A stretch of 60,723 bases of DNA, filler included, from Platydemus manokwari (lineage: Eukaryota): NCBI GenBank assembly GCA_037951405.1. It is 5 parts of 5 records of this genome, joined end to end, with 100 filler letters (N's around TTAATTAATTAA, not from the genome) between each part and the next. Parts side by side here need not be neighbours in the genome. Positions count along the whole stretch, not along the records: positions 35,021 to 49,226 come from JBBMOY011505859.1; 4 more parts are not named here. One strand, 5' to 3'. A program made the translations under genes and the position numbers. Shown in pieces: positions 1,961 to 59,712 of the stretch (its first letter is position 1; each line of letters begins with the position of its first letter). The notes under the pieces are model-generated. The model worked only from the letters and a program-made list of their open reading frames with translations, did no database searches and was not told the origin of the DNA.

Positions 1961-2139
1961 CGGCTTGTGAAGGATTGGGCATAATATACGTGAAGAAAAA
2001 TTAAAGAACTAACTTAATAATAATTTAATTAAAATATTTTTAATTAATAATTTTAATGATTTAAGAATGCAAGAGAAGATTATAAAGTTTATGACTAAAA
2101 AGTACTCATAAAATTAAGAAGAAAAAGAAACAACAATAT

Positions 2140-5724: not shown

Positions 5725-5850
5725 CTTGACCTCACACCCACATGAAGAATGAAGCTACTCACCATAGCCCATGTTATGCCTGAAATCATTGTCAAGTATT
5801 TTAAGAAGTGTGGCATGAGCAATGCCCTTGAAGCTCGGAAGATGATGCGT
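5725..5850 (+). mobile_element. pogo/Tigger-family transposase C-terminal relic
   Basis: DLTPT*RMK and PEIIVKYFKKCGMSNALE..SEDD match the pogo DDE_1 C-terminal pattern (TPTG..K.P..; IVKSFKKCGISNALDGSEDD). Confidence 0.65.
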
Positions 5851-7350: not shown

Positions 7351-7721
7351 TTTTATATTATAAATGTTGGTTCAACATCAAAGGAAATAAAAACATTTCA
7401 TTTCACACTTAATATGTTTAATTTAATCATAATCTAATCGTTTTCAAGATAAATGTTGTATTGTTATGTTCGTATGTTGTGATCGATTATGGATTTCTCA
7501 ATTTTTTTACATGAAATCGACGGTGATTTTAATTTGAGATTTACAAACTCGAAACCCTTCAAATCGTTTCAAAGTGTTAAAATCACATTGTGTAAATAGT
7601 TTTATTCGATTCGATTCCATTTTTATGTCGACGTTATTAATTATCTCTTGTTCTGTCACATGCACTGGATCCAAACATACTTTTTGGCATATTTCATATA
7701 ACTTATCATTACATCATTCAG

Positions 7722-11809: not shown

Positions 11810-12084
11810 TCAAACATTTTTACACTTGAATGAATTTGATAATTAAAATTTTCTCAATATTTTGTTCCTTTTGAATTATTTTGCTATTGTTTAATATATA
11901 TAATATTTCTATTCGAACGATTTATTTTCTTATAGATTTCTTCTTTCTAAATAATAATAGACAAAATCCAAATTGGTTTAATAAATTATTCTGTATAGTA
12001 GCAAATCATATAATTATCATGTTACTAAAAAATATTTATTTCAGCAGCTATTTTTGTGTTGGATATTATTGGCACTGTTCTGCA

Positions 12085-12184
12085 NNNNNNNNNNNNNNNN
12101 NNNNNNNNNNNNNNNNNNNNNNNNNNNNTTAATTAATTAANNNNNNNNNNNNNNNNNNNNNNNNNNNNNNNNNNNNNNNNNNNN
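12085..12184. other. Artificial contig spacer
   Basis: 44 N + TTAATTAATTAA + 44 N. Confidence 0.98.
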
Positions 12185-13040
12185 AATAATAATAATAATA
12201 GTAATAATAATATTAATAATAATAATAATATTAATAATAATAATAATAACAATAAACCTGATACCAGTTGACCTTAAATTGATTTTCAGATAAAACAACA
12301 TCATCAACCACTATGATGAGCTAATATCTATTGAGATTATTATGAAAACAAGTCCACTAACAAATAATGAGTTGAGTTGTAACAAGATAATTATTAATAA
12401 ATATAATGTGATTTGCGGTGCCGTTATCGTGTTGCACATTTGGTAGTGTTTATCGAGTTATTTCAAATATTTATATCTCATTATAATAAATATTCCATTC
12501 ACAATATACATCTATTCATTTCAAACAGATCTTTTGAATTATTCGAGAAATCTTTTTTCATAATTTGACATCTTTTTTCTTGATAAAACCCAGTTCATCA
12601 ATCAATCAGACATGTTGTGCAAAACACAGATTGTTGTGTAATAGCTTTCACAATAATGCTCTCTCTCTATATTGTAATGATGCTATTATACAAAGACTTT
12701 GTTATTATGATATGATATCGATTTTTGATTGATAGTCAAGTCAATAATATCTATTATTGAAAAAAACATTTCCAATAGATATAATCAATAGTATAATATT
12801 GATTTATAAAAATAATCAATAATTATTACACATAGAATTTGTTCCTTCTAAATAAGAAAAAATCTTACACAACTCTATGCGTGGAAAATATTATTTACTA
12901 AAATTATTTTTTATTCGGTGTAATTGGAATATTTTTGTTTATTGATTTTATTTTCTGTTTTTATTGATGTGATTGGCTAATATAATAATGAAAATAATCT
13001 GAAAATGATAGGGTATATATATATATATTCAGAGATAACT

Positions 13041-15154
13041 CTATCGATACGATTGCAGATTCCACGTTAACATATTATTATTATCTGAGTCGATCGATAT
13101 AGTAATCTGGAACAAATAGGCAAATCATAATAAGTACTGAATCTTGTAATTTATGTGTGTATGTATGTATGTATGTGTGTGTCATAGTTTTACAATCGAT
13201 TCGTAATCTGTTTAGTTAATATCAGTATAGTGTTGATTATTGATTGGAAATATAATCTTTGATTGGTGAATAAAACATAACACAAAAATATCGTAGTTAT
13301 CCAATGAATTGATAGAATGGATCTCATTAGTACAATTATTGATAAAAGATTATCAGAAATTATTAATTATAAATATTGATATTTATTATCAATCAATAAA
13401 GACTGGTAGTGTAAATATTATACCTCTCTATTTGTACCGAATCCAATGTTTGAGCCTGGTCGTTTAGAACTGAGATGTTCTATGCTTTTGGTCTTACCTA
13501 ATGTCATATCTCTCGGATGTGAGCGATTTAATGAATGCATACTACTATATTGCATTCCAGCTGCAAACAATTCATTCAATATTTCATACAAAAAACCCAC
13601 AATATCACATCAACCTGAATCTAATCCAGCAGGCATTGAACCTATCGTCCGTCGTTTCGTTACGGACCGATCGAATTTCAGTGGTTCATTGCGATTGATA
13701 TTCATGCTTCGATACTGATGAAGGGTTTTGCCGGAATAATTATATTTTGAAGCTGCCGTTGGAATCATTCGGGGCATTTGTTTCAAATTTTGTGGTTCTT
13801 TCATACGAAAAAATGTGTGTTGCTCGACAGCATTCTTCCATAAACGCTTGGCTAAATTATGATTGAAGAGTTTGAATCCGACGATCGCTACAGAATCGTC
13901 ATACTAATTAAAACATAAATTAATCAATCGATATATGCAATATAAATCAATAATTACTCGATCTGATCGAATCTTCAAATAGAAGTAATTCTTCTTGTAA
14001 GATATGCGTAACACTTTCGGCCAAGCAAACCTACCGATTCTGAGCCTATCCCTATAAATAAGCACTCCTTGATAACAGACCCCAATGAAGATCTCCACAT
14101 CATCATTATCTCTGGCAGGATGAAGATCGACACCGTATTGTTCGAGTCTTTTAGCTGTTTCTAAATATTTTACATCAGCTTTATCTGGTGGCATGTTGAT
14201 GTGCTTTTTGTGCAATTCAGCGATCTTCTCCAACAGTTGATCGCTCTGATTAAGTACAAATTCGAATTCGCGCAAATATTCGATACCATCGCCATGTTCT
14301 AATTCATCATAATCTCCAAGCTCCGATTGGACCATAAATGATCCCAGCAATGCTTGAGTTATCCATGAGCATGGCAGTTTTCCTGTGAACACATCCTGAC
14401 GGACTTGTAAGCTTAGCTGATATCTTGTAATATCTTCCTGCAGGAGCACAGGTTCAGGAGGATAGAATTTTACTTGGAAGTTGAAAACCCAATCGTCACT
14501 ACCTAAATTCGATCAGCAAATAATAATTTCATCTGATTTTTCATTGGACAAATTTTGACCAATAATTATCAACTGGACCAATGGAATTAAGATTTGATGG
14601 ATAATAATGACAGTAGTGTGTGCATGATTTACTAATCAATATATTGGATTGTCATGAATAGAAATGATATTTCACAAATACTCTCACTCAAATTATTAAA
14701 GGCACAAATCACGTGGACTACTCTATTAGCTTGACATAAAAATTTTAATGAAAGATATAATTTGAATTTCTTTAAACGAATCAATACCATGGTAACGGTT
14801 AATATCATGCCCCCATAATATAAATTAAATACAAATAAAGAAAGCTAACTCGTTAATTGTTTGGAAATTTTCTTCTCCATTTCTAACCAAAACTGAAAGA
14901 GCGAGAGAAAGATCGTGATTATTGATCGAATTAAAAAATAATCAAAAAACCAACCCATGTTTGCAATTTAGCATTGACATAAGTCATTCCGAAAAAATCT
15001 TTCTCGATCAAGTCGAGATAAGTGCAAACCTGATCAAACAAATCTTTTCCTAACATTTTCGAATTCATGTCGAATTCGACCTCCATACCATCGAGCAAGA
15101 TTACATTGGCTTTTTGGAATGTGAAATCTCTGGACGATTTGCCTTTGTTTTTTC
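13041..15154 (-). CDS. Band 4.1/coracle-like FERM + FERM-adjacent protein, 5' incomplete. Exons 15154-14955, 14892-14850, 14502-13958, 13903-13615, 13560-13424, probable last exon 13106-13041
   Basis: Spliced translation: VILLDG..GKDLFDQVCTYLDLIEKDFFG, FWLEMEKKISKQL, FQVKFYPPEPVLLQEDITRYQL, ALLGSFMVQSELGDYD, YGVDLHPA, FAWPKVLRISYK, KRLWKNAVEQHTFFR, SKYNYSGKT. GT-AG junctions and phases are consistent. Confidence 0.93.
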
Positions 15155-34920: not shown

Positions 34921-35020
34921 NNNNNNNNNNNNNNNNNNNNNNNNNNNNNNNNNNNNNNNNNNNNTTAATTAATTAANNNNNNNNNNNNNNNNNNNNNNNN
35001 NNNNNNNNNNNNNNNNNNNN
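34921..35020. other. Artificial contig spacer
   Basis: 44 N + TTAATTAATTAA + 44 N. Confidence 0.98.
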
Positions 35021-35317
35021 TTTTATTAAGATCATTACATGATTGATACAATATATAAATGTAATTTTGGTCTTATCTTTTAGGTATTTCAATAATAATA
35101 ATAGTAATGATTATAATAATAGTGATAATAATAATGATTGTGATGAAGTCTAAGGAAACATGATTAATGTTTTCAACCTTTAAACAGTATTGATATTATT
35201 AAGTAAATGAATTAGGTATTTTTGTGGCTTCAAATGGTAGCTTTTAATAACCAATTAGCTTGGTGACAAATAATTCTTATCGATTCATCTTTAGTTGTGT
35301 TATTGATTTCTTTCTAG

Positions 35318-38300
35318 GTTCTATTCCTGTCGTAACACTCAATTATTCTTCATTGATGTTCAAATCATCTTATTCACGTGATCAAGTAGAAACTTGTGTC
35401 AGGGAATTGATTAATGCCACCAACAGTTCCATTGCTAATCAAACTAGCACCGAACTTGTTTTCACAAAAATCGGTCGCTTACAAATACGAAATCAACAGG
35501 TGAAATTTAAATTTTACAAAAATTTCATTGCCAATATTGATGGGAGTGGCAAAATTATCAATAGCATGCAAAATGTAATGTTTTTGTACTTTGTAATTTG
35601 ATGGATAAATTATTTCATCATTAGCGACCAGGAACAGCTGATTCGGTTATGTCAGAGAGACCACCAACAAGATCATTTTCCAATGTTATACCATTACCGA
35701 AGTAGGTTTGCAATTTAATATAGTATTCTATTTCAGAATTTTATCTATGTGATATTAGAAATATATTTTCTCAACAAAACTCCCACAAAGAATCCCAATA
35801 ACAATTTTATTACTTCTTCGTTACAAAATGTGAAATGATAATCATATAACTCAGAGCATATTAATTCATTATTATATAACAGGGGTGGCCAACCGGTCGA
35901 TCTTGAAGCCAATTTTAGTCTATCGCGTGAGATGTTATTCAAATGAAAAGTCGATCTTTCGTACACAAAAGTTGGCCACCTCTATTATATAATATAAACT
36001 CCATTAATTTCATTTAATACAATAGAATATTAATTTATTGATTTTTATTAATATGTCGTTAATATTACGAGTACTTATATTTGATAAATAAAATTTTATA
36101 TAATTTTCATTTTTATATTTATGATTTTCATTTGTTATTTTCGTCTGAAGTTATGGATTTAAGCTTATTCGATGGATTTGAATGATAAAAATCATAAATT
36201 CACTTCGAACTTTATCAATTCTAAACCATTTGGGTATGAAAAGCAATTATATGAGAAAGTGCATTTATCGCTGACCTATTAAGCGAGTTTATAAAGAAAT
36301 GAAAAAAAGCATTTCTCCTTAATATAACATTATATAAAAAGTAGATAATAAATATGCATTCTAATTTTGTCATATTTGGGGCTGATAACTTTTAAAAGGT
36401 ATTTTTACTACATTCTGAACTCGATTACTATTTTATTATATCAATTAAATATTGATCGAATTATTATCTGAACTTGTTAATGAGGATTTTGATTGGAATT
36501 TCAGAATATCGTCTTTCAATGATTGTCATAGACTTGAGACTATAAATGAGAGGGATGTATTCGAATCGAAAAATTTAGATTTAGAAACATCTAACGTTTT
36601 GAGACTCGATGAAGATGGTAATCAGAATTCCAGTTACACTCAGCAGTTTGAAGATGAAGGTAAATAATTTTAATGAATGCAAATTGCTTCATAAGAATAA
36701 CTATTATAATATAATAATAATTATAAGTACTATTATTATCATTATTATTACTTTGTGATTGCATTCAATGTTTTATTATTATCAGCATCATTATGTTTCA
36801 TTTTAGCTGAAGATTGTAATTATATAAGTCCTTTAACTGAATCAAACAACTTCAACGCAATTCCTAATTCTGTTGGTATGAATCAGACATTTTCTGTGAG
36901 TTCCCAATCCGTAACTGAAAAGTCCACGAATTCAGAAAATTGCAACGGAGCCTTATGCGATACAGTTACAACCGACCACAACGATATATTAACATCTATT
37001 GATATCGACCTCAAACCACTGCCTACTCCAAAGCCTCCGTCGAGATCATCTTTAATTTCTCAACATAAAAGACCCACTTCTGTTTATTCGAACAGCCGAC
37101 CATCAACATCAGCTTCGTCGTCATGTGGACACCCAGGTCCAGCTGGTCAAGATTTATGTTACGTTTGCTATCAACGAGAAAAGAGAAATGTACCTATTTC
37201 TTTCACAGAACAAATCAAGGAGCGTGAAAAAGAAGAAGAACGTGTCTTACAAGCTTTTCAAAATATGAAAGATACCGAACACTTTCTTAAGGAACAAGTA
37301 TGCCGATAATGTTTTTTGTTTCTAATAATAGTAATTCATTCTAAATTTTGCACAGTTTCAGAAAGGCCTTTAGGAAAATTATCCTAAAATTTCTCTTTTA
37401 ATTCCAAATTCATTTTGAAAAGAATTTTAACTGTTAAATGTACTTACAGTGGTTATAAAATGAATTTGTTTTTCACTAGGAGAATCTTTTATCAAGAAAA
37501 CACGACAGTCAAAAAATTGCCGCATTTAACGCGGGCGTGGCTGATGCAGTTCGTAACCAACAGAGATCAAAAGATCCAAACATGTATCGATCATATTTAT
37601 TTGAAAAGCGACCCTTGACTCCTCCGAGAATAATTAAACAGAATCTGCTCAGGTAATACACCAGTGGTCTCCAGAGTGAATCTAAAAGTTGAAAATCATT
37701 TAGTTCTCAGCTTGATAAACAGGTTGAATGGAAAGTAAACTCCAAAAAGAAAAACGATGAAGAGGAAGCTTTCGTCGAAAGACTGGAACAAATTCAGTTA
37801 GCAGAAGATCTTGCCAAGCAACGTGATCAGTATATTAAAGATAAAGAAAAGTCAAAAGACCTTTACAAAAAAGCTTTGGATACACAAGTTTGATTTTCTT
37901 TGGAATCATTTTAAAATACAGACAAATCGATTTTTAACAGATTGATTCTAAACCATTACCCATTCCAAAATATCAGCCGGATTCAGAAGAACCGTTTTTC
38001 GGAAAAAACGATGTTACTCAGGAAAAACTGATAGAAAAGCGATCAAAAGCTCGAGAAATTTCGAAGAACCAACTTGAAGCTGCTGAACAAAAGAAACGAG
38101 ATGCTTTGATAAAGAAAATCCAAGAGCAGACTCACGAGGAAAAGGTTCTTGACAAAGTGAAACACGAGTAAAAATATATTTCAATTGAATATTTTTGTGA
38201 TTGATGCAAATATGTAAACACTTGTACTGGTTTTGCAGTGAAAAAATGTTAATAATAACAGCTATTTATTCAATAAACATTATATTTTATGATAACCCTG

Positions 38301-38991
38301 ACAAAAGTAAGATTCCAAAAAATTAACTTGCCAGAATAATGATTGTGGCCTTTCTGAGGATTGGGTCAGATATAATATCTTCTCAACTGGTGGTCCACGC
38401 AGTGTCCTTCATCAAAATGTTTTATTCCTCATCTTCCAACTGATGAGAGAAATCTTCGGTAACTTATTTTATGTCCAAGAAGTCATTGATCGTCCGTAAA
38501 TTACAAGTTTGAGAGAATTATCATTTTGACACTCACCCGAGGGCCTCGATCATCTAGACGTTCTGTTTATTGTCACCAGTATAACTGCAAATTAAGAGCC
38601 CCGCTTGATACACCACATAGTTTATATATTTTGTTTAAATTATTAAAAAATTAATTTTATCAGAAACATCATCATTATTTAATATCGGTTATTAAGCCAT
38701 TTTCAGATTATTTTCATTTTCAGTGTCATTGAAGATCGAGCTAGACGATATCAAAGAGCTTTACAGAATAGAATGAAATTGGAAAATGAGTGGGAGCGGG
38801 CAAAGGAAGAGAAACAAGAGCGAGATCTGATGGAAAGATTGAAGATCTCGATGCCGGATAAATTGTTGATGCATGAACAGTGTGATAAATATACGAGATG
38901 TACACAATGCAAAAGAAAAGTCCACAACATTGGTCAAAGCAATGTTTGGAAAGAAACTTATTTCAATACTGGCACGAGATTTATTTATTAG
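35318..38991 (+). CDS. CCDC81: Coiled-coil domain-containing protein 81-like, 5' incomplete. Exons 35318-35574, 35625-35701, 36505-36659, 36807-37297, 37480-37652, 37704-37887, 37941-38167, 38724-38991
   Basis: IPVVTLNYSSL..SRDQVETCVRE..ELVFTKIGRLQIRNQQVKFKFYKNFI (HU-like domain), AGQDLCYVCYQR and C-terminal HEQCDKYTRCTQCKR..NIGQSNVW, recognised from memory as CCDC81 motifs. GT-AG junctions. Confidence 0.85.
35880..35984. mobile_element. 105-bp hAT-type MITE in a CCDC81 intron
   Basis: TIRs CAGGGGTGGCCAAC / GTTGGCCACCTCTA (12/14 match); perfect 8-bp TSD TTATATAA at 35872-35879 and 35985-35992. Confidence 0.85.
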
Positions 38992-40202
38992 AATACTTCA
39001 AGGGAATAGTTCTCCAATGATTTAGTCAAACATAGAGGCCATTCTACTTTGCTTGTGAATGACCGACTATAGATAACATGAAAAGTTTTGATTAATTTTC
39101 TTTAATTCTCAGAATCTATTATGAGTTCTTGAACTATTTTAATTAGCTAATCGGTCTATTATATTTTTGTATTGTTTGAATGTGTTAATAAATATTATTT
39201 TGCTATTTTATTACAATCCAAATCAATTTTTTTTGGCTCGTTTATTTAATTTTTTATTGTATGACTTAGAATTGTTCAAGTTGGTAGATGAATGAATCAC
39301 TAAAAATCAAATGAAACTAATTGAAAATGGAATTTTAGTCACAGAAAATTAATTTAGAAGATAAAATTGCTTGAAAATTGTTTTAGTCGTTAACTTTTTA
39401 CAAGCAAATACTGACATAATCGAAAAATGTGAGTTAAACACAATAAAAATAAAAGTCCTCTTTTCTGGTGTATTTCAACTACATGGTATAAAATCGCGAA
39501 GCAACTGTTGAATTTTGTTCCTCAAGTTAATTTGGAATATTTTTGAGAATGGACACATTAACGGAATATGTGAATTTAGTGATTCCACATTGTTGAGGAA
39601 TAAACTCAAATCAATAAATTATTAATAAATGGTGCCCTAATTTTTTGAAATCGCTTGCTTACTATATTATTTTCATTAGCAGCTGATTTATTATATTTTC
39701 AACAATATTTTATTGGGTTTTTAGTGATGTAAAAATAATTTTTGGTGCTCTATTTGAAGAGCTTATTAAGAGTTTACAGTAAGATTACGTTTTTACTAAT
39801 TAGATTTTTTTTAGTAATATAATTTTAATATACTTTCAATTTTCATTTTATGATTAAAATTTGATGCTTAAAGAACACGTAATTATACAATCAGAATTAA
39901 TCCAGGAGTTAAATACACTACACTGATACAAGCGCTGAGTTTGGTGACTATCAGAGTTAACAGACAATGATTTGAACATCATTAAAAAATGTCTTATAGT
40001 TATAGAAGTATAAAATATTCTTATTAATAATGCTATATAACAGTTTTATTTGCGTGTGAAGACATTAATGATTATTAATGTATAATTAGGAAAATTTTTA
40101 AATATATTATTTGTTACGTTAATAATATTTATGAAATGATTTTTATCCATTCCAGTTAGAAAATTTGAAAATTCGTTAAAACTGTTGAGTGAGATGAAAT
40201 TC

Positions 40203-40592
40203 TGCAAAAAGAAAAACGAAATTACACCTTGGAACCTTATTTTGGCACTTTGAGCATTTGGATGCCTGGACGGCCATACAGGCACCCCAATGGGTCAATT
40301 ACAGTGAAGCTAGCTAGTAAATTACAATCGTGAAAAAGGGCATAACTACACAGAACACATCTAGGAATTGACCAATCCCATTCATGTAAAAACCCAAATA
40401 GCCAATAAGAACACAGAAAGGCAAACATCAAATCAAACTGCAGTTCATCTTGACACAGAAAGATGCACACAGGTCGCGAGTATAAAAAGCAATGTAAAGA
40501 TAGTTAACTGCCAGTTGAAAGACAGATTTGGTGAAACTATTGAGCTCATATCGATTGCCGAGTTCTTTTCAGTGTGTTTGTATATTGATTAA
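40203..40592 (+). repeat. Dispersed repeat, copy A (diverged copy ~59402-59712)
   Basis: CAAAA(A)GAAAAACGAA.TT.CACCTTGGA.CC...GCACTTT.AGCATTTG.ATGCCT.GAC...ACAGGCA is shared with 59.4 kb; weaker similarity continues downstream. Confidence 0.75.
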
Positions 40593-40599
40593 CATACCT

Positions 40600-41415
40600 T
40601 CGAGGAGTCAGAGTTTGATATTCCTTAATACCCCAACAATTATTTGGTGAGCCCTTATTCGAGCACTTTTACGATAATGTATTCAGAGAACCAGGATTCA
40701 GATTTTGCGTACCATCTATCAACACTTGCAGAAAAAGCATTCGGACCGAAAGCAAAGTGGCCAGCACAAACACGAAAAGTGGTTGAGGATCAATTTTTGA
40801 AAAGAGTGCATCAACACATCAGCACAGTGCTCAGTCTCGTCGATTATACCACCTACGATGAACTCATAAAAAGTTATGAGGGTAGAAATGAACTCTACAT
40901 CTATAATTCGTCAGCCTGTCACGTATGCCACAGAAACAGATCTCTCCTTGATGGGAAAAATTGAGAGGCTATCACCCAAGAAATCCATTGACAATATCCT
41001 CCCAAAATCCACGCGATTATTCACAAAATCACGTCAATTGTCGGTCAGAGACTCTCCAAAGAAGCGGCTAGGGGTGATATGCTTTAAATGCAACCGAATT
41101 TTACATTATGCCAATCAATGCTAATTTACATTTGCCAGTGAAAATCTAACGAAATCTCGAAGTAGTTCCACTTCTTCAATTCTTAAAAGGCAAGATTCAC
41201 CAATTCAAGACAATAGATCATGCTTTACATGCGGTAAAATCGGTCATATTTCGAGAGACCTTAAAAAGGAATCTTCACAAAATCACCGCAAAGAGACATT
41301 GTTAACACCCAGGGTCATATTAAATCCTTCTCCTGCGGTCACTTCCGGCATTTTGCCAGATCATGTCCGCGAAACACAAGTAGATTTCAGCAATCGTCTT
41401 CCAAATAGAAAGTAA
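40600..41415 (+). pseudogene. gag: Retroelement gag (Ty3/Gypsy-like) with two CCHC zinc knuckles, disrupted
   Basis: DFAYHLSTLAEKAF..VVEDQFLK..TYDELIK capsid-like segment; CFKCNRILHYANQC (41080-41121); CFTCGKIGHISRD (41221-41259, last Cys lost). Frameshift near 40875 and stop at 41122. Confidence 0.8.
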
Positions 41416-41550
41416 GCTTTCAAGACGATCATTCAAAGTTAATTTAACACAATCTGAATCACAAAATCCATGGGAATCAGAAATATCAATGATGAAAAAT
41501 AAACTGGAACTATCGATCGAGAGACTAGAAGGTGAAAAGGGCTTAATTTA

Positions 41551-42810
41551 ATGATCAAACCAAATCAGTTGTTGAGATGGAGAAATGAAGATTATGATAG
41601 TAGTGGTGAGAATATTGATGATGATGAGAGTATTAAAAAATTGAAAAGTTGGAAAATAAAATTAAAGACTTGTATGATGCATTTTTGTGGAAATTTCGAG
41701 AATAGTTTGGATTACGGTGACGGACAGCCGAGAGCTTTCTAATTTAGGTGGAAACGAAAATGAATTATGTTCGGTTATGTCGTCGCAGCTTTTTAGGAGT
41801 AGAACAATTAATTCAGGATTTATGAAGGTAATGACGGAAATGTTAGATTTTATAGCAGTTACTTATAAAGGAAAAGATTTTGAGATTTTTGTTGAAAATT
41901 GGGTAGGAGATTTGATTAAAGTAAAACTAAATTCTTTTTCGAGAGTTCGACATGTTAGAAGCCAGATTGTCGGAGGAGATGCTCCGCTTACGTTTTTGAA
42001 TCAAATTCTACGATATGATGATTATGTGATTATTTATGGCATCGTGCCAGAAAATGATATTGTTGTGAAAATGGAAAAAAGATGTATAGGAGAATGGAAG
42101 AACTCTACAGAAATGCTAAAGCAAGTGAATACGCTTTTAAAGGAGGAGTCATTGAATTTTAAGGAAATAGTGAAAATTTCGGAAATTATCCTTGAAAATA
42201 TACCAATGTTTCGTAATTTGAGTGAGTTAATATATTTCTTGGTACCGTATATAGAACAATATTTACCTATTAATTTTTACGTTGATTGGAATAATATAGA
42301 AAAAGAAGGCTTAAATCTACCTCCGTTTGAGATCAGTTTGATGAAATCAGGAGTTGAAATAGAGAATGTCAAAGAGCATTGATATACAAAGGTAAAAAGA
42401 ATCAGAAGAAGGATTTCAGAGAATTTGAGAAACGAAGCGGTTATTATCTTATCATATTGCGATCAAAATTTAGATTACGATGAATATTTGCTGAATTATA
42501 AATGTGTTGCTGGAAATGCAAACAAAATTAACTTCGAAGTTCATTACGAGAAAGGCATTATTAATGAGAACGTGGAATATGAGCGAGCCAACTTGCATAA
42601 AAATGACGTTACGTACGAAATTCAAGAGGCAGTATTTAACTTGCCATTTCATCAAGATTTTAATACTGATAATCATAATAATAATCATACAGACATTATC
42701 ATTAAAAAGGAAAATGCAGAATTTAATGAAATAGAATCAATCAACAATAAAAATCGAATATATTTAATGAAATCAAAAAATAAGAAAAGTAAGATATTAA
42801 GAAGTGGAAT
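41551..42810 (+). pseudogene. Unknown coding region leading in frame into the glycoprotein
   Basis: ORFs 41687-42382 and 42425-43099 share a frame and are separated only by TGA 42380-42382. ORF 41551-41742 may join by a frameshift. No recognisable domain. Confidence 0.6.
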
Positions 42811-43830
42811 GTTATCTTTGAACTTTTGGAGTAAAGCCATAATTTTTATGATGATGTTAATTATATTTAGCGTCGGTAATGAAGTTAAAACCTTAATAGC
42901 CTACGATTGCTCTAAAACAGAAATGGGAAAAATTTATTCGTTAATGGATATAACTGATTGCCCGGAAGCACATCCGATGAAAATCTCTAGTGGCGAAAAT
43001 GAGCATTATTTTCTATATCAGGAATCAAATTTTATTAGAGTGCAAGTAAAGGAATGCGTCGCTAAGAAGACAACTTTTGTTTTTCACTGTGGTAAATAGA
43101 GTCATACATCATTGATTATGATGAAGGCAATCCCCAGACCATTAGAGATAGACGCTGACAACTGCATAGCAGCTTTAAATTAAAAATAGACACTGGAATT
43201 AAATTATCAGCAAAAAGAGGTTATATCATGAGGGAATCCATTGTAGTTAGAGGATCCGTAGAAGCAGATGGAGAATGTAACGGAGAACCATTTAAATTTT
43301 CTGGGAAAATTGTCGATAAAGCTGTAGTGATGGAGGAATATTCCATCGAAATACGACAATGGGAACGCGACGAACTGAATGGGCAAATGCAAATTCATCC
43401 ATTCTGCAACTCAAAACACAAAAGTGCCAAACCGGTGAGCCAGTATAAGTTTATAATGTAAGGTCACAAGATTGCAATTTGGCATTTTTAAAAGAAACTA
43501 ATTTAATAGAAGTTAAGGGTGAACGAGTAAATGAAGTTATTAACAGCTTACATTCCGATCGAACACCCAAGAGCAAGATAAAGGCCATCCCAGTAAGAAC
43601 AAAGCGAACCCCAACTGTTTTAATGTCAATCTTGACTGAAGATGGAATGCGCTTTATCAAAAAAGACAGTACCAAAATCTGAAAAATTAGTGTATCAGAC
43701 CAACTATAAAAGATTATATGTATCAAAAACAAAATTAGAAAATGCCAAGGAAAAAGTCCATAGTGGCGATATCAAGTTGGCAGCGAGAGACATCGCTTGC
43801 ATGAATAAATTTAAGGAGGACCAAGAAAAT
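42811..43830 (+). pseudogene. Chuvirus-like (class III fusion) glycoprotein, env-like; N-terminal half, disrupted
   Basis: Hydrophobic signal FWSKAIIFMMMLIIFSVGNEVKT, then LIAYDC..YSLMDITDCP, LYQ...VQVKEC...FHCGK*SHTS, GSVEADGECNG..FSG..KAVV..YSIEI and VYQTNYKRLYV. This follows the Cys/motif order I recall for chuviral G proteins (YDC..SL..C; V.QC..CG.HSH; G.C.G; T.HP.L). Confidence 0.75.
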
Positions 43831-46799
43831 GATAGTGAAATCAATTCTAAGTCTTATCAGTACTCTGAGTCCGTCTTGACCCTCAGGTAGTATTATGACT
43901 TTATGAGTTTTGTCATTTATTCGCCTCGACGATCACTTCTTATATGATGATAAGTGGATCGGCGTAGAAATCGATTTTACTTTAGTAATCGCTTCTATTA
44001 TTGTCCTATTTATGGTATTGATTTTGGATGTTGTTGATTCTTACTACCAGTCTCACTTAATAATGCACCAGAATAACTTTAAAAGGTGATGAATGATAAT
44101 GAATTATATATATTATGAAATTGTGATGTCTTAGGCCTACTGGCAGATTTAAAATCAATTTAATGTGTGTACTACAATGATTTATTATTAATTACAATTA
44201 TACACCAATTACTACTTCTATACAATTATGGGGTTATAAACTACTACTTGTATGATACTGTATACAATTATTAACAATGAATACGATATACATTGGTTTT
44301 ATGCAACTACTTTTATACACATAAATGACATATAAACGACAATTCAGGGAAGCAGATGTTGGACCAACAGTTACCCTTCGTGCTATTGGGTCAGTGTCAA
44401 ATATTCAGAGTTTTTTTCCGAGCTCGGGTCGATAAATAGGAAGAATGTGCGTTATATATAATTGAATATGTTATTTTAAATGTATTATCTTACTCTTTGT
44501 TTTTCCAGTCGAAAATACTGGAAATATCTTAATCTCCGTCCCGCCAATGAATCGTCGGGTTCTTGTATACATTTTCTTATCGTGTTCTGGTGTTCTCGTA
44601 TTGTATATCGTGTGCTTTAATGATTACGGTTATTGCCTTATATAGACAGTGGTGAGTCATTCACAGATATTCTCTGCGTATATTAATGCACGGTAATTTA
44701 TTTTATTAAATGCATGGCTATTATTTTATTTAATGCATAGATATTACTTTATTTCAGCTGGATATTTGATTCGCAGTGCGTGATAATTTATTGCGCTGGA
44801 TTATTTCATAGATAGATTCACTTTGTGTTTTGTTTTAATTAGTGAGTTTTTATAACGTTATTTTAATGTAATTAATTTTATTATATCAATGCCGGGTTTC
44901 TTATTAATTATAGGGATTGTAAATTGGGGTTTAAATTATATATTATATTATATATTATTATATATTACTATATAAAATATACCCATCAGTCACAAAATTC
45001 CCCTGAATTTTCATAAAAAATGTTTTTTCATGCAATAATAAAAATTATATATTAATGCATGCAATTTATGTTAAAAATTTGCCATAGACTCCAAAACCCA
45101 ACAAAAATATGATTCATGAAATAATATCTGTATTATCTGGGTCAATGTTACCAGATGAATGATTTAATTATGTTAGCTATGTATGGTTTAATAATGTTAT
45201 TCAAACTCAACAGCGTGAGTTCTTCATTGCTTTCGCTTGTTAGTATTAACATTGACTATTTTAGTGAATAGCGGTCGATAACAATGTTATTTGATATTTC
45301 GATCTGATTGATTTTTATTCGTAAATGACAATCAACACTTTAAAAGGTTATTATTTAGAAATTTGTTATTTTGTTAAAAAATTTTTAGTGATAATTTGAT
45401 GTATTCTACAAAAACGTGTAATAATTTTATTGAATGTGTGACATTATTATTATTCTGTATGTTACGATGTGTATGATATTTCTTAATGGGTGTTGCAATA
45501 TTTCAACTCAACAGCGTGAATCCTTTTAAAATTTGTTAATACGGTTTAACTATCAAAATAATCACACACAATTTCGATATCAAAATGTATTTATAATATT
45601 ATACAACAAATCGTACACACTAATTTAACTCAATCAATTTTTTACTACAAGTTGTTTTGGTTATCTCACCGGGAATTGTAATTCAATAAACATATTATTT
45701 TATATTACTTTTGTTAACTTATTTAACTTTTTCTTTTGAATATGATAATCGATTTTGTGATAATTGACTTGATCGCAACAAGATAACAACAGAAGTACTT
45801 TTAATCTACGCAAATTGGGTGTGCTTTTTGGTTTAATAAATTATATTTCAAAATTTGGGTTACATGTTTATGGTAATGATAAAATATTGAAGTATAGAAA
45901 TAGTAGAATCAATAAATAGGTTGAATTTATAATTTATTTAATTAAAATAATCAATACAATACATCAATGTTGGGTTATAAATTATTATTTATTTATCCTA
46001 ATGCACCATATGAAAAACAGATTCGGCGAAGCGTTGAGTACCTAATCGACAGGAGAAGGTTAATTGTTTAATTGTCTAATCGCCAAAACGTATCAAAGGA
46101 ACTGGAAATAATACAGAGTTTTAAAAAATCAGTATTGTGTTGATAAATTTGATAATATAATAATTCCAAGATTAAAAATGAAATTGAATTTTTATACAAG
46201 TTTAAATATTATAGAAACATTTTCAATTACCGTACACCTTGTCTTCACAATTGATTAAAGCGCAAGTAAGTCACATTATCAAATAGTTAGAACTCAAGGA
46301 GACTGATTAAATGAACATAGTGTGAGTTTAAAAGAAACTGACAGTAAAAATACGAACGATATTTCATAAACCAATGATTTAGTTAAATTTATTAGTAAAA
46401 ATTATTTTACTTTGAAATTCACAAGCCCAGCATCTAATTTCAGTCTTATTAATTCGAATATTATATAATATAGTTCGTAACTATTAGTTACAGAGGTCCA
46501 TGGATTATTTATGAAGCCTTTTAACAAATTGAAAACTTACTATGCGTATTGGGGGTGCTATAAAAGAAAAGAAAATGTGATAACCCCCCTAAATCAATAT
46601 TCTAGTATTATTATAAATTATATATTTTACTAATATACTTTTATGGTTTACAAATTCATTGAAATTATGCTGATAAAAACATTCATGTTGCTGATATAAT
46701 CTCAATCGATTTAATTATTGAAGAAAATTATCATTCCAACTAAAAATTATTATTGAACTGAAAATATCGATAAATGTGAAAGAAAAATAAAATTATTCT

Positions 46800-49130
46800 T
46801 TGCATATTCGACAATATTTCAGAAATATAAGCGTGGATTTGGATAGCCTTGAATTGCATTTTCAAATTACTGGAATCACTGGGTTCAGATTCATTTAAAT
46901 CTGATGAGCCATGATTAGCGTTATTCCATTCAATCGATATCTATAAAAATATGTTCACGCAAGAACTATTCAATAAATTATAAAATTTAACATCTATAAA
47001 TCAGTTATTACTATTATTAATTTAAATTTTTATAAAGGATATCCATATTGGATATTTAAAAATGCCAACAAGTTGTTCCAGACTCATTTTTTGTCTGAAA
47101 TCTCTGATAAATATTTTTCGTATCAATTTATTTTTAAAGTATAATTTTATCCAAAAGAAAATTAAACAAAACATCATTTTTTTCTCACCTTCAACTAATT
47201 CATTATATCGTGAACGAGATTTGAGTTTGTCGATATTTGGCGCCAACATTTCAAGGCTAAACAAATAATGGATGACAAAAAACAAACAATTTGTAATACG
47301 TTTCACGCTTCATTTATTCTCTTTTCCGAATGATTTAATATTTTGGTTTCGTTTCACGATTCGTTGAATTATTTCTGCTAATCGAAGCTTTCAATTTAAT
47401 TATCGATTTTTTTATTGATACTGCATGAGAATTGTGGGCAAGAGATTTTATAATAATATTAAAAACAACACTGTGGTGACATCCAAGATTAATTGCAACC
47501 TTAACGACGATACTATAAGATGAAGTTTTTTTCTAAATTGTTAGCGCTTATTGATATTGATTCCAATGCATCTACAAGTCATTCTTTGATAGTAAAGTAA
47601 ATATCTCACGAATGAAAGTATTTTTGAAGTATTTTTATGAAGTATTTTTTAGCAGTAGCCATTTCATTCAAATTATCCTCAAAGAAATCCAGGAGAAATA
47701 TTTCCAAAATCAATATAATATTCCATTTTCAAAAATCATTGATCCTCACATCATCATAAGGTTTGTGAGGGTTGTTGGTTGGAGCCATTTATTAATTCAG
47801 CAGGTATTTCATGTATTGGCAGATTTTTAATGGCGAATATGTTCTCAGATAAACCAAGTTTACAAGCAATATCATTTATTAGTTGCTTTCAATAATTTCT
47901 TTCACATCACCGTGTTCACATCTCAATTACTAAGATAAGTATTACAATATTTCATTGAATCGAAACATATTAATATTTATCTCTTTTGTATTTTAAATCG
48001 CAAAACAGTAGTTCACAGAAAATAATCGATAAATTAGGCTTATAAAATTCCAACAGATAATTGATGAAAGAAAACGAGAAAAAAGTGTTTGATAGTATTC
48101 GATATTGGCCATAAAAAATTGAATCGAAACCATGAATAGGACGGTATATCAGCATCTCGGTTTCAATTTCTTTATACTGAATATAATAAATCTTAATACA
48201 ACCGGTCTCACAATCGTCTGAAACACAAATCGATTTTCGCAAAACAATTAAATAAATTATCGAAAATATCTCTACCAGTTTAATGACGACTTTGTCGGCT
48301 TTTTCAATTCTGTCCGAATCTGTTAATTGAAATATTCTAATTAATCCTCTCAATTATAGAGATCATCAGTTTCAAACCGCATAATCTCAAACCAATCGCG
48401 CCACATATCAATGGGAAAAAAAATTAATTAACAATTATTTTCTGTTAATAAGATTTGGATTTCTCTATAATCTTTATAATTTACCGCTGTGATGATAACA
48501 AGTATTGATATCACTTCCAAAAGTGAGGAAACCTCTGAGGAAATTTCTCTATTTCAACCACATTATTTGGAGGAAACACAATGAGAGTCCATTAAAGCAT
48601 AATTTTTCTGAAAATGGAAATATTGAGAATTGTTTCATTGATTGTTGTGACCTTTTCATCAGTTAGTGGAACATAACAGAATGATCGGGAATATGTCATT
48701 ATTTATTTAGACATTTGTTATGGTTCAAAGGAAACATAAAATAATCTATTATTAAATAGAATTCAACATTCTTTTAGCTTCCGGTCTGGCTTAGTTGTTA
48801 ATAACCATAGATTTCTGTGAAAGGAATTTCTGAAAATCACTGACTGATACAGACTTTTTTAATAATGATATTTAGAGTTTGAATGGCTCATAATCCGAAT
48901 TTTAACAGACGATTATATTTGTGGCCGTAAAATAATCGAATATTAAATAAAGTATCTTGACGGTTTGGAAACTGATATAACATAAATGGTCGCACAAATA
49001 CATCAATTTTTTAAGGATAAGAAAATCACTTTGTTAGCTTCCAATTGTTCTGGCAAAATATAAAGTACCTTTAATCTTCAATGGATTGCGAATAGTATCA
49101 TAATTATTATTTCTTCTGGATTTTTCATAA
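46800..49130 (-). pseudogene. Decayed, apparently intronless coding-like region of unknown family
   Basis: Successive broken minus-strand reading frames (47022-47306, 47970-48353 and flanks) with protein-like composition; no family recognised. Confidence 0.3.
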
Positions 49131-49226
49131 ATTTATTTATAAATCGATACCATACAGATTTGAATCTTATTATTAAATGATAATAGTTATTATTTCTGGA
49201 TTTTTTATAAATTTATTTATAAATCG

Positions 49227-49326
49227 NNNNNNNNNNNNNNNNNNNNNNNNNNNNNNNNNNNNNNNNNNNNTTAATTAATTAANNNNNNNNNNNNNNNNNN
49301 NNNNNNNNNNNNNNNNNNNNNNNNNN
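49227..49326. other. Artificial contig spacer
   Basis: 44 N + TTAATTAATTAA + 44 N. Confidence 0.98.
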
Positions 49327-49327
49327 A

Positions 49328-50614
49328 AAAGATTGGGATAAATTAGAACACTTATTGAAAAACCGAGATACAATCAAAAAAGCAGACTTTCTAATATCAG
49401 CTTCTCAGATACATAGAGAAGAATTCTATAAAAAATTCTTAGAGGATAATGCCGAAGTCATGCCTGAATTAAATACAGAAATATTAAAAGAAATTCTAGC
49501 ATATCTAGGAATGAAGGATTTTACAAGACTAATTCGAAATCTACCATCTGACGAAATCTATGATATCATAGAACATTTTACACAAGAAATACAAGAAGAG
49601 ATTATCTGTAAATTACCTTATTATAAAGCACAAGTATTAACAGAGGTATTATCATGCCCTACTGAAAGTGCAGGTAGAATGATACAAAAAGACTTTATTA
49701 CTGCTCATCCAGATTGGACTATCAACCAAGTCATCGAATTATTAAGAACGTATAAAACAAGGCATATACAAAAAGAACTATACGATATATATATAACTGA
49801 CCCTGACAAAAAACCAATCGGGAGAGTCAATCTAACCGCATTATTATGTAACGATAGGAACACTAAAATTTCCAATATTATGCTTACAGATTTCAAAAAA
49901 ATAGAAACTGGCTTAGGGCAAGAAGAAACGGCAATTCTATTCCGTAAATATGAGTTACTTTCTGCACCAGTAATAAATGAGAATCAACAAATGATAGGTG
50001 TAATATCATGTGACGATATTATGCACATTATACAAGAAGAAGCAGAAGAAGATCTATTACATCTAGGTAAAATATCAGAAAATGACTTGAATGCAGGTAT
50101 ATTTCATACATTTAAAAGAAGAATAGTATGGCTTTTTATTACTTTCTTTACAATAAATATAGCTTCTTTTGTAATAGGTTTTTTCAATGAAACACTCAAA
50201 AAGTCTGTAACAATATCAATTCTAATGCCAATTATTGCAGCAATGGCTGGTAATAGCGGAATGCAATCAGCTACTATAGCAATACGCGCACTTGTAACAG
50301 GGCAATTATCGTATATAAACTATAGAAGAGTATTATTAAAAGAACTATTAATAGGTCTATTCAATGGAATAGCATTATCTATATGCATATTTACCACAAT
50401 ACTATTAAGATACCATAATGTAGAGATAGAATTCATTTTTGTATTCTCAATGCTATTTGTTGTAACAATCGCAACAATTGTTGGATCGGCTATTCCAATC
50501 ATAATCCATAGATTGGGTGGTGACCCAGCACTTTCATCTTCTGTCATCACAAGTTCTATCACAGATATCCTATCCTTTCTAATATTGTTATCAGTCGCTT
50601 CAATTATCCTATAA
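49328..50614 (+). CDS. mgtE: Bacterial magnesium transporter MgtE, 5'-truncated by the contig edge
   Basis: Intronless frame open from 49328. MgtE N-domain, ESAGRMI, tandem CBS domains (YELLSAPVINENQQMIGVISCDDI), EEAEED, RIVWL, MPIIAAMAGNSGMQSAT, DPALSSSVITSSITDI. Confidence 0.95.
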   Translation, partial: KDWDKLEHLLKNRDTIKKADFLISASQIHREEFYKKFLEDNAEVMPELNTEILKEILAYLGMKDFTRLIRNLPSDEIYDIIEHFTQEIQEEIICKLPYYKAQVLTEVLSCPTESAGRMIQKDFITAHPDWTINQVIELLRTYKTRHIQKELYDIYITDPDKKPIGRVNLTALLCNDRNTKISNIMLTDFKKIETGLGQEETAILFRKYELLSAPVINENQQMIGVISCDDIMHIIQEEAEEDLLHLGKISENDLNAGIFHTFKRRIVWLFITFFTINIASFVIGFFNETLKKSVTISILMPIIAAMAGNSGMQSATIAIRALVTGQLSYINYRRVLLKELLIGLFNGIALSICIFTTILLRYHNVEIEFIFVFSMLFVVTIATIVGSAIPIIIHRLGGDPALSSSVITSSITDILSFLILLSVASIIL

Positions 50615-50633
50615 ATAAAATCATATAGAGCAA

Positions 50634-51090
50634 ATGAATATAAAAAAAATAAATATCAATATCTTCAAAAAACATAGTCAACAGTCTAATACTAAAAAAT
50701 TTCGTTATAGAAATACTGTGCTATTCAAGATATTACTTATTTTTGTAAATTCATTAGTCAAAATGGTACGTAATGATGGGTTCGAATATGCAGGGTATAT
50801 GACATTTCTAATGATATTATCAACTTTCCCTTTCATCTTTCTGCTTACAGCACTTGCTGGTTTTGTCACATACGTTTTTGGTACAAGCATAATCAATATG
50901 TCAGTTATTATAGACATAATTTTCTCAGGGTTACCAGACGCTACTTCAAGAAGTTTGAAACCTTATATATCAGCAATAGTGAATATCCCTAATATCAACT
51001 TGATAAAAATGGTGATTGCAGGTGCATTATGGACAAGTTCTTCATTAGTCGAAGGAATAAGAACTATTCTCAATAAAATATATGCTAATG
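50634..51090 (+). pseudogene. yihY: Bacterial YihY/BrkB-family membrane protein, C-terminally truncated
   Basis: Starts 19 bp after the mgtE stop. DGFEYAGYMTFLMILSTFPF and GALWTSSSLVEGIRTILNKIY resemble Rickettsiales YihY. Similarity stops after NKIY; the ORF tail to 51182 appears to be read-through into non-homologous DNA. Confidence 0.85.
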
Positions 51091-51398
51091 CTTATAGTTC
51101 TATTACCAGAGAGAGACTGCCAAGAATTTGTTTGTACATATTTTATATTTCAGAAATATCTATCTATACACAATCTAGATAATACTTCTATTTTGGCATG
51201 AATGTACCTAATATGGTAATTCCATGAAAATTACTTATGAATAGAACTTTAAAATAAGACATTCTTAAAAGCTTGAAAAATCATTAATGTAAAATATTTT
51301 TGAAATAAACTGTCATTTGATTTTTATGGTCATGGGGAATAATATCGAATGTACCGACTCATTCAAAGTTCAGTTAATATAGATTTTTTTGCTTATAG

Positions 51399-54300
51399 GT
51401 TGGGAAAAACCACAGTGGTTTGCTGTAAATGAAAACGAGAGAGGATATAAACCAAGTTTCAGAAGATCAAATTGGTTTAGTGCATTGGAGCGAGAATGTA
51501 AAAGTGTTGTTGAAAATTTGGGATTAATTGATTTAACATCATTCGCCAAATTTATTATTTCCGGAACAAATTCAGAAGAGTATTTGGATAAGGTAACTGC
51601 AAACAATATTCCACAAATTGGGAACACGTGTATCACACATCTGCTCACACCAAGAGGTCGTGTTTATTCAGAATTAACTCTCACTAAAATAGAGGAAAAC
51701 AAATTTATCGCTATTACTGGAGCTGGTTCAGAATTTCATGACTTATGGTGGTTGGAGAATAAAGCTCGATTACATGGATATTCAGATTCGGTGAAATTCG
51801 AAAATATTACTGATAAAACTGGTGTTTTAGGAATAGCTGGTCCTAAATCAAGAGAATTCTTGCAACCATTGGTAAATACTGATTTGACTGCAGATGGATT
51901 TAAATTTCTGCAACATCGGAAAGCAGAAGTTTTTGGAATCCCTGTTAGCTTAATTCGCATTAGTTATACCGGTTTGTTGTATTTTATTTAAATATTTATA
52001 AGGTTAATGAGTTGATGTATGTATATAATTATTATTTAATAATAATAGTAAGAATAACTACTTGTACATTTAGCGTATATATTATCAATTCAATCTTGCA
52101 TGTGAACCAATAACATATCCTTGTCCTGTCCTTCTCAATGAATTGCTCTTTGAAACAGGAATTATTATAATAATATCAAATAATTGTTAATTTTGGAATT
52201 GATCAAATTTAAAAGTTCTACTCTATCCTAAATCAAATTCCTTTCTTATATTGATCCGCACTGGTTAAAAGCAAACGTTTTTGTTTAAAATAATATTTAT
52301 TTTAATACACTTTACATATGATATCAATTAAAATCACCACAAGGCACAAACTCAGTTAATAAATGTCACTGAATAGTATTGATAAATTATAATAATATAA
52401 AAGAAATATAAAACAAAGAAAATATCGAATTAGAAAATAATACATAAGGAATGACACCCTTAGCGAATTCTAAATAGTTACTGCTAACTATCAAATTTAG
52501 AGAATTATACTAATCTTGCTCTCTTTGAAAATATATACAATTTTATTACGAAGAAAACTGACTCAATGGGATTGTATTTTTCACATTAATTATTAGACCA
52601 ATGTTACAACTGAACAATTCGAGCCAGTTCAAGGAAACATTGTAACTACTTTACAATCGTTTATCGAGAAATTTGGCCAGTAGAATTTATAATCCAGAAG
52701 CGTGAGTTCCAGTTATTAAGCAATTTTATTCATTGTTAAAATCAATTTAATAATTTTTCTACACCGTAAAAATTCTAATTGAACTTCTTTCAACTAGAAT
52801 ATTCCTAAAAATTACATTCAGATCAACTTAAAATATTTAATAATAGTGGTTACTAGGCAATTAGGCCTAAAACCCAATAAAATCAACAATCAGAACTCTA
52901 AGACATCTCAAATACTTTGAATTCTATCAATATAGAACCACAAATAGTTTTAAATAAAGCGAATTTGTCAAAAATAATTGTCATAAATATTTTTATTTTA
53001 CTTTATTGTACCTCAATAAAATTTGATTGTATTTCATTGATTGTATGACGAATAATAACAATCGCATATTATTTAAATAAAATTATATGTTCTATTTATT
53101 GATTTATAATTCAACATCATATCCTGTTTATAATATACATACACCTTTTGGATTCAGGTGTACTTAATTAATATTATTAATGAAAGTTAATTAGAGCTCG
53201 ACCCATTTACTTCAAATTATATTAATTAATTCGCATATAATATTCAATTTATTTTGATCCATATTATATTAAATCCAAAGACTAGCAAATCCAAACAATT
53301 TTTGATAATTTTCCAAATTGGTTAAGTTTGAAAATAGGGAAGAAATAATTTGTTAAATTAATATAATTCATCAATCATTTTTAATGAAATAAAATGTCCT
53401 TGAAATGCATGTAAATAACCGCAATTATCATAAATCAATATTTATTTGTAGTATTAGGGTTTGGAATAATTAATTTTATTGAATTTGTAGTTTGAATATT
53501 CACTATAATTAATTAAGTGAAAATCGTTTTTTTACAAGTATATTTTATTTTAATACAATCTAATACATGAAATCAGCTTAATCAATAATTAATGTTAAAA
53601 AATTTAATCATTAAATACAACATGAGTCTAATGCGACGAATACCACCAAAACGGAAATAATCTTTATCCAAAATTGACTGTGATTAAAATGAAATTAATT
53701 TTTCATTTCGAATAGATGTTATGAATTTTTTATTTTATTCTTATTTCACGTTTATCAATTTCTATTATGTCCTTTTATCTTAATAATTTATGCGTATATA
53801 TACAAAATTATATTATGATCAACAATTATTATAATATTTGTATTAGTCACGTGATTGCTTATTTTAATATTCAGTTATTTGACATTGTTTTTGAATATGC
53901 ATTCACTATAACTGTTACTGTATTAATTAGATCATATATGACACAAATTAAATTAATAATCCTCAAATAGAAATTTATTAATACCGATGTAGTATTAAAT
54001 AAAGTGTTTTGTAGAAAATTTGAGTCCTGGAGTTGAATTATAAGTCTATTTAATTTGCTTCTGTCCTTTCTCTATTTGAATAGTATTTTAACTGCGTGAT
54101 TAAATACTTAATTTGTTTAAATACGATTGCCTGAAGTTATTTTTCGTTGAAATTTTTCACATTCCTGTGACAACTGGCATGGTTGTTTTGGAGATTTAAC
54201 AACTTTTTAAAATTCATTGTAGTATAAACATACGAATCCTTTCTAAAAATAGTTTTGTTTTTTATTTTTAAATGTTAACTGGTGTTTATTTTTTCTGTTT

Positions 54301-59063: not shown

Positions 59064-59401
59064 GTTAGTCATAGCTATTATTTTTCGAAAGTGTGATTTT
59101 CATACAAAAGAATCCTGATAAATTTTCAAAATATTGTTTTTATTATTAAAATTCACCTGAAACCCAATAATTGCTCTCAATATATTCTAAAATTATAATT
59201 ATTAAAAATAACCAAATTTTCAAAATTATTTCACAAAATTGTAGAGAATAACATTATAAGCAATCATTCAATGGCCTTCTGAAAAAATGTTTCATTTTTA
59301 AATTTAGGTTTCATGCAATGGATTATTGATCAAAATATTGAGAGTTCCGTGCAATTATCTCTCTAAAAAAGCGCATTGTAATTGTTGAGTGTTAAGAAAT
59401 C

Positions 59402-59712
59402 TTCCAAAAGAAAAACGAATTTGCACCTTGGATCCCTTGTTTCAGCACTTTAAGCATTTGTATGCCTTGACAACTGAACAGGCATTTCAACCATAGTTGA
59501 CTTAGATGAAAAACGATATTTGGAAATAGGGACACAATTACACACAACATAAATAAGGATTGACTAATCATGGACATACTAAAACTAATAACCCCAATGG
59601 AAACATGAGAAATCAAGGTTGAAATCAAAATGTGATCTCGAGCATAAAGATGGTCAACTGCTAGTTTGGAAACCAATTTTTGGTTGCGTTTTTTGAGACA
59701 TTGTATTGACTT
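59402..59712 (+). repeat. Dispersed repeat, copy B (see 40203-40592)
   Basis: Direct sequence similarity, strongest over the first ~90 bp. Confidence 0.75.

Follow-up and report, generated by a model that had tools for sequence, protein, structure and literature searches.

A predicted pair of ubiquitin-like domains between Gag and a gB-type envelope in a decayed, probably gag-env-pol, element of Platydemus manokwari

Introduction

A Ubi/SUMO-like domain and an in-frame envelope between gag and pol are already known from the planarian Burro/GYPSM1 elements. In the passages that Arkhipova and Yushenova (2019, PMC6431247) devote to them, Gag, a Ubi2/SUMO-like motif, BCL2 and a mononegavirus-like envelope are listed, the envelope lying in frame between gag and pol. 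ORF1 of Burro, of about 4,900–5,100 residues, is described in the same passages with MATH, BIR, ankyrin and Smc domains and a BCL2-like domain before the envelope. Burro1 RNA is reported to go up on piwi knockdown (PMC8532177).

Elements of the order GAG-ENV-POL with gB-type envelopes are reported from flatworms, nematodes and bryozoans, six of them from Schmidtea (Chary and Hayashi 2026, PMC13524379). Their envelope ectodomains are described as flanked by two membrane segments (PMC13524379). Neither the main text nor seven supplements of that paper contain the word ubiquitin, its figures lying outside the search, and the gag-env linker is unannotated in those texts.

Here we analyse a related region of Platydemus manokwari (assembly GCA_037951405.1). 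The window is the full 60,723-nt stretch, in which positions 35,021–49,226 come from JBBMOY011505859.1. The region is best explained, with a probability of roughly 0.8, as the cytosolic accessory middle of a Gag-accessory-Env(-Pol) polyprotein from a Ty3/gypsy-like element of gag-env-pol type. Its ubiquitin-like domains (UBLs) may, with less certainty, act as docking domains.

Results

AT-rich eukaryotic DNA makes up the window, and some of its host exons encode FERM and RGS_DHEX domains (Table 1). A block of three intron-free genes of bacterial type, mgtE (above the TIGR00400 cut-off), a YihY/BrkB family member and a GcvT-like gene, occupies 49328–51991 of the plus strand and begins directly at the N-gap 49227–49326. 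The block probably represents either bacterial DNA that was joined to the assembly during scaffolding or an insertion from a symbiont.

Table 1. Features of the element and its surroundings in the window
Feature	Position	Strand	Basis or remark
Host exons	13907-14512, 25067-25564	-	FERM domains, RGS_DHEX domain
Second copy of the stretch from UBL1 to UBL2, in more advanced decay	19381-19964	+	blastn/tblastn; nhmmer E 2e-10
Short exon-like frames, charged coiled-coil-like protein, just 5' of the element	about 37000-38950	+	
Remains of a broken gag (C-terminal part of the capsid, CCHC zinc knuckles), over several frames	40698-41390	+	tblastn with P0043
Segment between last zinc knuckle and UBL1: unfolded, no family, frameshifted in this copy	41438-41872	+	contains out-of-frame ATG 41551
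UBL1, predicted ubiquitin-like beta-grasp domain	41873-42082	+	AF2 model residues 9-78
Predicted three-to-four-helix bundle, 5' of UBL2 in relatives too	42104-42307	+	AF2 helices 86-153
UBL2, predicted ubiquitin-like domain	42320-42544	+	AF2 residues 158-232, pLDDT mostly 84-95
Asn/Glu-rich low-complexity spacer ending in basic patch (42770-42793)	42557-42808	+	sequence
Internal signal anchor or signal peptide; predicted cut between 42892 and 42893	42812-42892	+	hydropathy, conserved small residues
5' part of gB-type (class III) envelope gene	42893-43800	+	PF24664; tblastn of relatives
Probable 3' LTR, TGTGA...TCACA termini	44122-44994	+	inferred from termini and contig depth

The plus strand is open from stop to stop at 41678–42382 (234 aa) and again at 42383–43099 (238 aa). 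The sole internal stop of 41678–43099 is the TGA at 42380–42382, and the frame terminates with the TAG at 43097–43099. When this stretch was shuffled 2000 times, no forward frame with one stop or fewer arose. The first-pass annotation had described such a frame, broken by a single TGA before the TAG, and this description is confirmed, with the start moved from 41687 to 41678 by the stop-to-stop reading. The 473-residue read-through, with X at the TGA position, is called P0001 below. The ATG at 41551, formerly taken as the start of the region, lies in a different frame. Since Gag homology extends upstream of it across frameshifts, it is not a start codon.

A relative of 68% identity, P0043, came from the third word-based protein search, alongside two seed proteins. 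It carries Gag, three knuckles and the accessory region in one frame, with three zf-CCHC matches (E 2e-14) and a Retrotrans_gag match (E 8.5e-5, just short of the curated cut-off). In tblastn, its residues 133–190 match 40698–40871 (84%), residues 191–463 match 40870–41685 (41%), and residues 381–658 match 41438–42274 (55%). The homology therefore spans 40698–42274 across three frames. Indels that set sister contigs apart from this copy lie near 41270, 41430, 41540 and 41680 (2–6 contigs each, among 40 listed of 781 differences), close to its frame changes. The continuous frame of P0043, the position of the indels and the gene order of longer relatives (below) place the region in the middle of a polyprotein that begins with Gag, ahead of env and pol. 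Gag with CCHC knuckles thus precedes the region as in GAG-ENV-POL errantiviruses, as seen in P0043 and in the knuckle remnants of the window. The relatives cover the layout in pieces, none spanning Gag, both UBLs and env; P0043 stops in the helical bundle, and P0004 is without both ends.

The end of the helical bundle is irregular in several sequences. P0008 and P0043 lose homology near it and P0004 carries on there, while this copy is locally shorter and loose contig ends occur at 42300. The site is probably a decay hot spot or, less likely, a recoding site.

An AlphaFold2 model of 41849–42559 (pLDDT 74.5, pTM 0.41) consists of a beta-grasp domain, a helical bundle and a second beta-grasp domain; at this pTM the model does not define how the domains pack against each other. 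The best Foldseek matches of the model are di-ubiquitin and ISG15 (E 1e-8). Aligned separately with VIA-align, the two domains reach Z 10–11 with an rmsd of 1.5–2.0 Å over about 70 residues. UBL1 superposes on ubiquitin (6a44) and ISG15 (6oar) with Z 10.8 and 1.5 Å over 68–71 residues, and UBL2 on SUMO/FAT10-type UBLs with Z 10–11. Both domains of the model have the strand-strand-helix-strand...strand topology and are superposable on ubiquitin.

At the sequence level, profile A1, with 10 aligned sequences of which four (P0011, P0015, P0033 and P0023) were chosen by eye as UBL-like, matches the UHRF1 UBL (E 6e-5) and ISG15 (E 1e-4) in the PDB. The stricter five-row profile A2, built from phmmer-significant rows without those four and P0007, matches ubiquilin-2 at no better than E 0.04. 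A three-row sequence profile of UBL1 only found no UBL in the PDB, and a single-protein sequence search of the PDB gave 0 matches. In the ESM Atlas the top score was 0.76 in both searches, and the second returned Rad60-SLD and ubiquitin clusters at 0.75–0.76, which are leads only. By profile, AlphaFold2, Foldseek and VIA, the accessory region, previously considered unrecognisable, is modelled as two ubiquitin-like domains around a small helical bundle.

The UBL2 profile scores 21.2 bits on UBL1 of P0043 and 15.3 bits on UBL1 of this copy, the best of 400 shuffles reaching 6.5. Scores so far above the shuffles indicate that UBL1 and UBL2 are paralogues, and the resemblance of UBL1 to the family's own UBL2 points to a duplication within the element. 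Duplication of the whole helix+UBL unit was considered and rejected, the UBL part passing and the helical part not rising above shuffles. Folded alone (pLDDT 68.7), the helical bundle had no Foldseek match at E≤0.001 and a best VIA Z of 6.4, hence no specific fold match, an absence that is not proof of a new fold.

Neither UBL has a Gly-Gly behind its last strand, here or among the relatives scanned; the exception is P0015, with one a few residues beyond the UBL domain. The only GG near UBL1 of this copy is inside the domain and is missing from P0043. In the UBL2 column equivalent to Ile44 of ubiquitin (column 202), placed by means of the A2 alignment, the residues vary and are mostly polar; the column has 10 rows, of which one is out of register. 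The C-terminal Gly-Gly of a conjugatable modifier is therefore lacking, as is, for UBL2, a conserved Ile44-type patch. Given these two features, the UBLs are probably integral docking domains and not conjugated tags or cleavage signals.

Deubiquitinating hydrolases need the diglycine. Its lack makes it very unlikely that host deubiquitinases cleave the chain at the UBLs, although the top BFVD fold matches include BVDV polyprotein fragments that carry ubiquitin inserts, and the cleavage of such inserts in pestivirus polyproteins has been described (PMC8310069). The region resembles the inserts of cytopathic pestiviruses in placing a ubiquitin fold within a viral polyprotein. Those inserts, however, are presented in that source as genuine ubiquitin that was captured recently and is cleaved by hydrolases of the host, whereas the domains here are divergent and have no cleavage motif.

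Retroviral matrix is an all-helical domain at the Gag N-terminus. The present region lies C-terminal to the knuckles and is mostly beta-grasp, and a matrix identity is not supported. Of the earlier proposal of a polyprotein with a matrix-like or other cytosolic accessory part and an internal signal, the polyprotein, the cytosolic accessory part and the internal signal stand, and the matrix-like protein gives way to the UBL domains.

The spacer behind UBL2 matches no family above cut-off and no BCL2-like segment. The signal-like segment after it is indeed internal and preceded by a basic patch, as had been noted. The only 19-residue windows above 1.6 mean hydropathy start at residues 378–389 of 473, and the sole strongly hydrophobic stretch, at about residues 378–407 of the read-through, follows the patch directly. 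The site was compared over 24 proteins, the present one and those 23 relatives whose upstream sequence was long enough. A small residue occupies position -1 of the predicted cut site in 21 of the 24 and position -3 in 23 (background 0.24 and 0.30). The hydrophobic core exceeds 2.0 in 21/24, and the charge ahead of the core is net positive in 17/24.

Residues 388–472 match PF24664 (Monjiviricetes_fusion, a gB-like fusion glycoprotein family) above cut-off with E 1.5e-11, so that an HSV/gB-type envelope follows the signal sequence as in GAG-ENV-POL errantiviruses. Beyond the TAG the envelope gene changes frame near 43180, 43410 and 43670, and its homology ends at about 43800. The window envelope is 45–47% identical to P0006, whose residues 210–370 are, by eye, nearly identical to the Smed_errantivirus_1 ectodomain given in the supplement of PMC13524379. 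By this comparison through P0006, the window envelope is close to the envelopes of Schmidtea errantiviruses. From this closeness, the host would probably be a planarian-type flatworm. In P0006 the envelope fragment is joined to an L47 domain (mitochondrial ribosomal protein), and P0006 is probably a gene-prediction or assembly chimera.

This copy is dead: it has stops and frameshifts, has lost half of env, and is without any pol. Seventeen relatives used as queries, several with full pol, gave no pol match in the window. The segment at 44122–44994 is probably the 3' LTR, judged from its terminal sequences and the contig depth, which is high to about 45000 and then drops to 20 and 11; it has no direct-repeat partner within 35000–50000. 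Because pol and the second LTR are absent here, gypsy membership rests on the relatives. Over about 40100–45000, 5424 contigs pile up to a depth of 680–13,339, versus 6–33 in the flanks (one public run, possibly the source sample). The pile-up marks a repeat family, and its depth is not copy number. One public sequencing run contains the element, and there is no RNA run among the matches listed.

The second copy of the UBL region in the window is about 70% alike to the first and has no detectable gag or env beside it. The stretches 40171–40493, at the very-high-depth 5' end of the element, and 59371–59677 are similar (nhmmer E 2e-21), and this likeness marks another fragment of this or a related repeat.

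The TGA interrupts UBL2 between strand 2 and the helix. The second copy has a TGA (19785–19787) at the same codon, and the aligned relatives, a set biased to open frames, have a residue there in 8/9 cases and a gap in 1/9. Its presence in both decayed copies could be coincidence or descent from an already broken ancestor, and the TGA is most likely decay. An inherited leaky stop setting a high Gag-to-Env ratio in the subfamily would account for its presence in both copies, and a single-ORF gag-env-pol layout would require some control of stoichiometry. Yet such a stop would split the compact UBL2 domain in half, and both copies bear further stops and frameshifts. Together with the residues in the relatives, this leaves a leaky stop highly unlikely.

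A phmmer search of 1.84 billion representatives gave 41 matches, of which four match best in the upstream region and 37 in the envelope. With the upstream region, word-based protein searches found nothing among 2671 longer candidates or 2961 near-length candidates, and locus searches, with 3 pattern matches among viral contigs and 352 among JGI metagenomes, confirmed none. Of the 41 phmmer matches, seven pass jackhmmer for the helix+UBL module. Among six complete Gag-to-env linkers it is significant in three (P0007, P0015 and P0033), weak in P0011 (Pfam ubiquitin E 0.019), and not found in P0019 and P0035. A tree of 66 env columns and 28 proteins has support for 5 of its 25 inner branches and shows no clustering of the UBL label (373 of 500 shuffles as low), which says nothing on gains and losses.

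The relatives also supply the gene order. P0007 reads CCHC-module-env-protease, and P0033 and P0035 read CCHC-env-PR-RT-RH-IN in one chain. PR-RT-RH-IN, missing from this copy, lies downstream of env in P0013, P0033 and P0035. The continuity with Gag in P0043 and the env-before-pol order of the relatives point to the region as the accessory part of a gag-env-pol polyprotein. Several relatives (P0007, P0010, P0013 and P0017) have at least two aspartic-protease-like domains behind the envelope. P0033 (HBK71150.1), a complete CCHC-UBL-env-pol polyprotein, is filed under a Flavobacteriaceae metagenome bin as a hypothetical protein and is likely animal DNA in that bin.

Some further alternatives, in part those of the first-pass annotation, can be weighed here. 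The region might be an env-leader or matrix-like protein in its own right, begun at ATG 41551; it might also be the tail of a deleted pol, or a pseudogene captured from the host. Such readings could be suggested by the ATG coming after the apparent end of the gag frame, and by Pfam, in which no family matches the accessory region directly. However, P0043 reads through from Gag past the out-of-frame ATG. The region follows the Gag zinc knuckles in P0043 and the pol of relatives stands downstream of env, which, with the empty pol searches of the window, argues against a pol tail. The helix+UBL module occupies the same place in divergent elements, against a host pseudogene. All three forms are extremely unlikely.

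BCL2-like segments just ahead of the envelope signal occur in 8/42 proteins (P0010, P0011, P0012, P0014, P0015, P0027, P0028 and P0029); Pfam PF00452 appears below cut-off in 3/20. In P0011 and P0015 the helix+UBL module, weak in the former, is followed by the BCL2-like segment, as in Burro. A BH2-like look of P0043 residues 384–412 (E 0.1) was rejected.

Discussion

The element shares with Burro/GYPSM1 a CCHC Gag followed by a UBL-bearing accessory region and then a mononegavirus-type fusion glycoprotein, and a Ubi/SUMO-like domain indeed lies between Gag and env. One such motif is named for Burro, whereas two UBLs are present here. The linker here is only about 500 codons, with no BCL2, MATH, BIR or ankyrin match. 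A seven-relative BCL2 profile found nothing in the three forward frames of 40001–45100, and P0001 and P0043, which jointly cover Gag to env, gave no Pfam match to the MATH, BIR, ankyrin or Smc domains of the giant ORF1. The element resembles Burro in its accessory region, fails the size and domain tests of Burro, and fits the GAG-ENV-POL group on gag and env. Smed_errantivirus_1 and _2, described in PMC13524379 as GAG-ENV-POL elements with HSV/gB-type envelopes, are like it in envelope type and, judged by its relatives, in gene order; unlike them, the window copy is broken and without pol.

Two beta-grasp domains per chain are also found in ISG15, FAT10, OASL and linear di-ubiquitin. In contrast to those proteins, about 75 helical residues separate the domains here, there is no C-terminal diglycine, and identity is 8–22%. 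A search of the literature on ubiquitin-like and BCL2-like domains with gypsy or env elements gave no tandem-UBL variant among its top matches. Relative to the literature searched, the doubled UBL, the lack of a BCL2 domain and the recurrence of a helix+UBL module in compact elements are new.

A simple path can be proposed for the encoded chain. The positive charge, the hydrophobic core and the small residues at -3 and -1 suggest a cleaved signal anchor, which would insert N-in/C-out. Signal peptidase would cut at 42892/42893, and the envelope ectodomain would enter the ER lumen. The Gag-UBL1-bundle-UBL2 part would stay membrane-tethered on the cytosolic face until one or more aspartic proteases of the element itself trim it. 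Flavivirus and alphavirus structural polyproteins follow a similar capsid-anchor-envelope logic.

Within the tethered part, the likeliest reading of the UBLs is that of integral docking domains which are not themselves conjugated. By them, host proteins of the ubiquitin system or of trafficking would be recruited or decoyed during particle assembly. This step is the weakest of the proposal, at somewhat less than even odds on its own. Alternatively, the UBLs might be a built-in late domain that mimics Gag-attached ubiquitin and recruits ESCRT for budding. They do lie C-terminal to the nucleocapsid knuckles, PTAP/PSAP, PPxY, YPxL and FPIV motifs are found upstream of env in 0 of 10 proteins scanned, and in foamy-virus Gag a fused ubiquitin is reported to replace the late domain (PMC2958808). 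The same source, however, ties this activity to the L8/I44 patch, and the corresponding UBL2 column is variable and mostly polar; two of the six complete linkers, moreover, are without a UBL. A late domain is thus unlikely.

A broader proposal is that single-ORF elements of flatworm-type hosts carry, between nucleocapsid and envelope, a modular host-manipulation cassette of one or two helix+UBL modules, with or without a BCL2-like segment, in which the UBLs replace late domains and, through a surface other than Ile44, draw in the host's budding or ubiquitin machinery. We regard this as speculative and doubtful. If true, the element would be a natural encoded counterpart of engineered Gag-ubiquitin fusions, its capsid tethered to the envelope by a cleaved signal anchor.

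Experimental confirmation is called worthwhile but hard in the 30-kb Burro elements, in the passages cited above (PMC6431247). Here the cassette is cut down to a 230-residue UBL-helix-UBL unit, suited to study alone. The window copy is itself a dead fragment, and the UBL module is not limited to giant elements. The finding bears on how single-chain Gag-Env-Pol elements assemble their particles, and on the role of the ubiquitin- and apoptosis-related extras that they carry.
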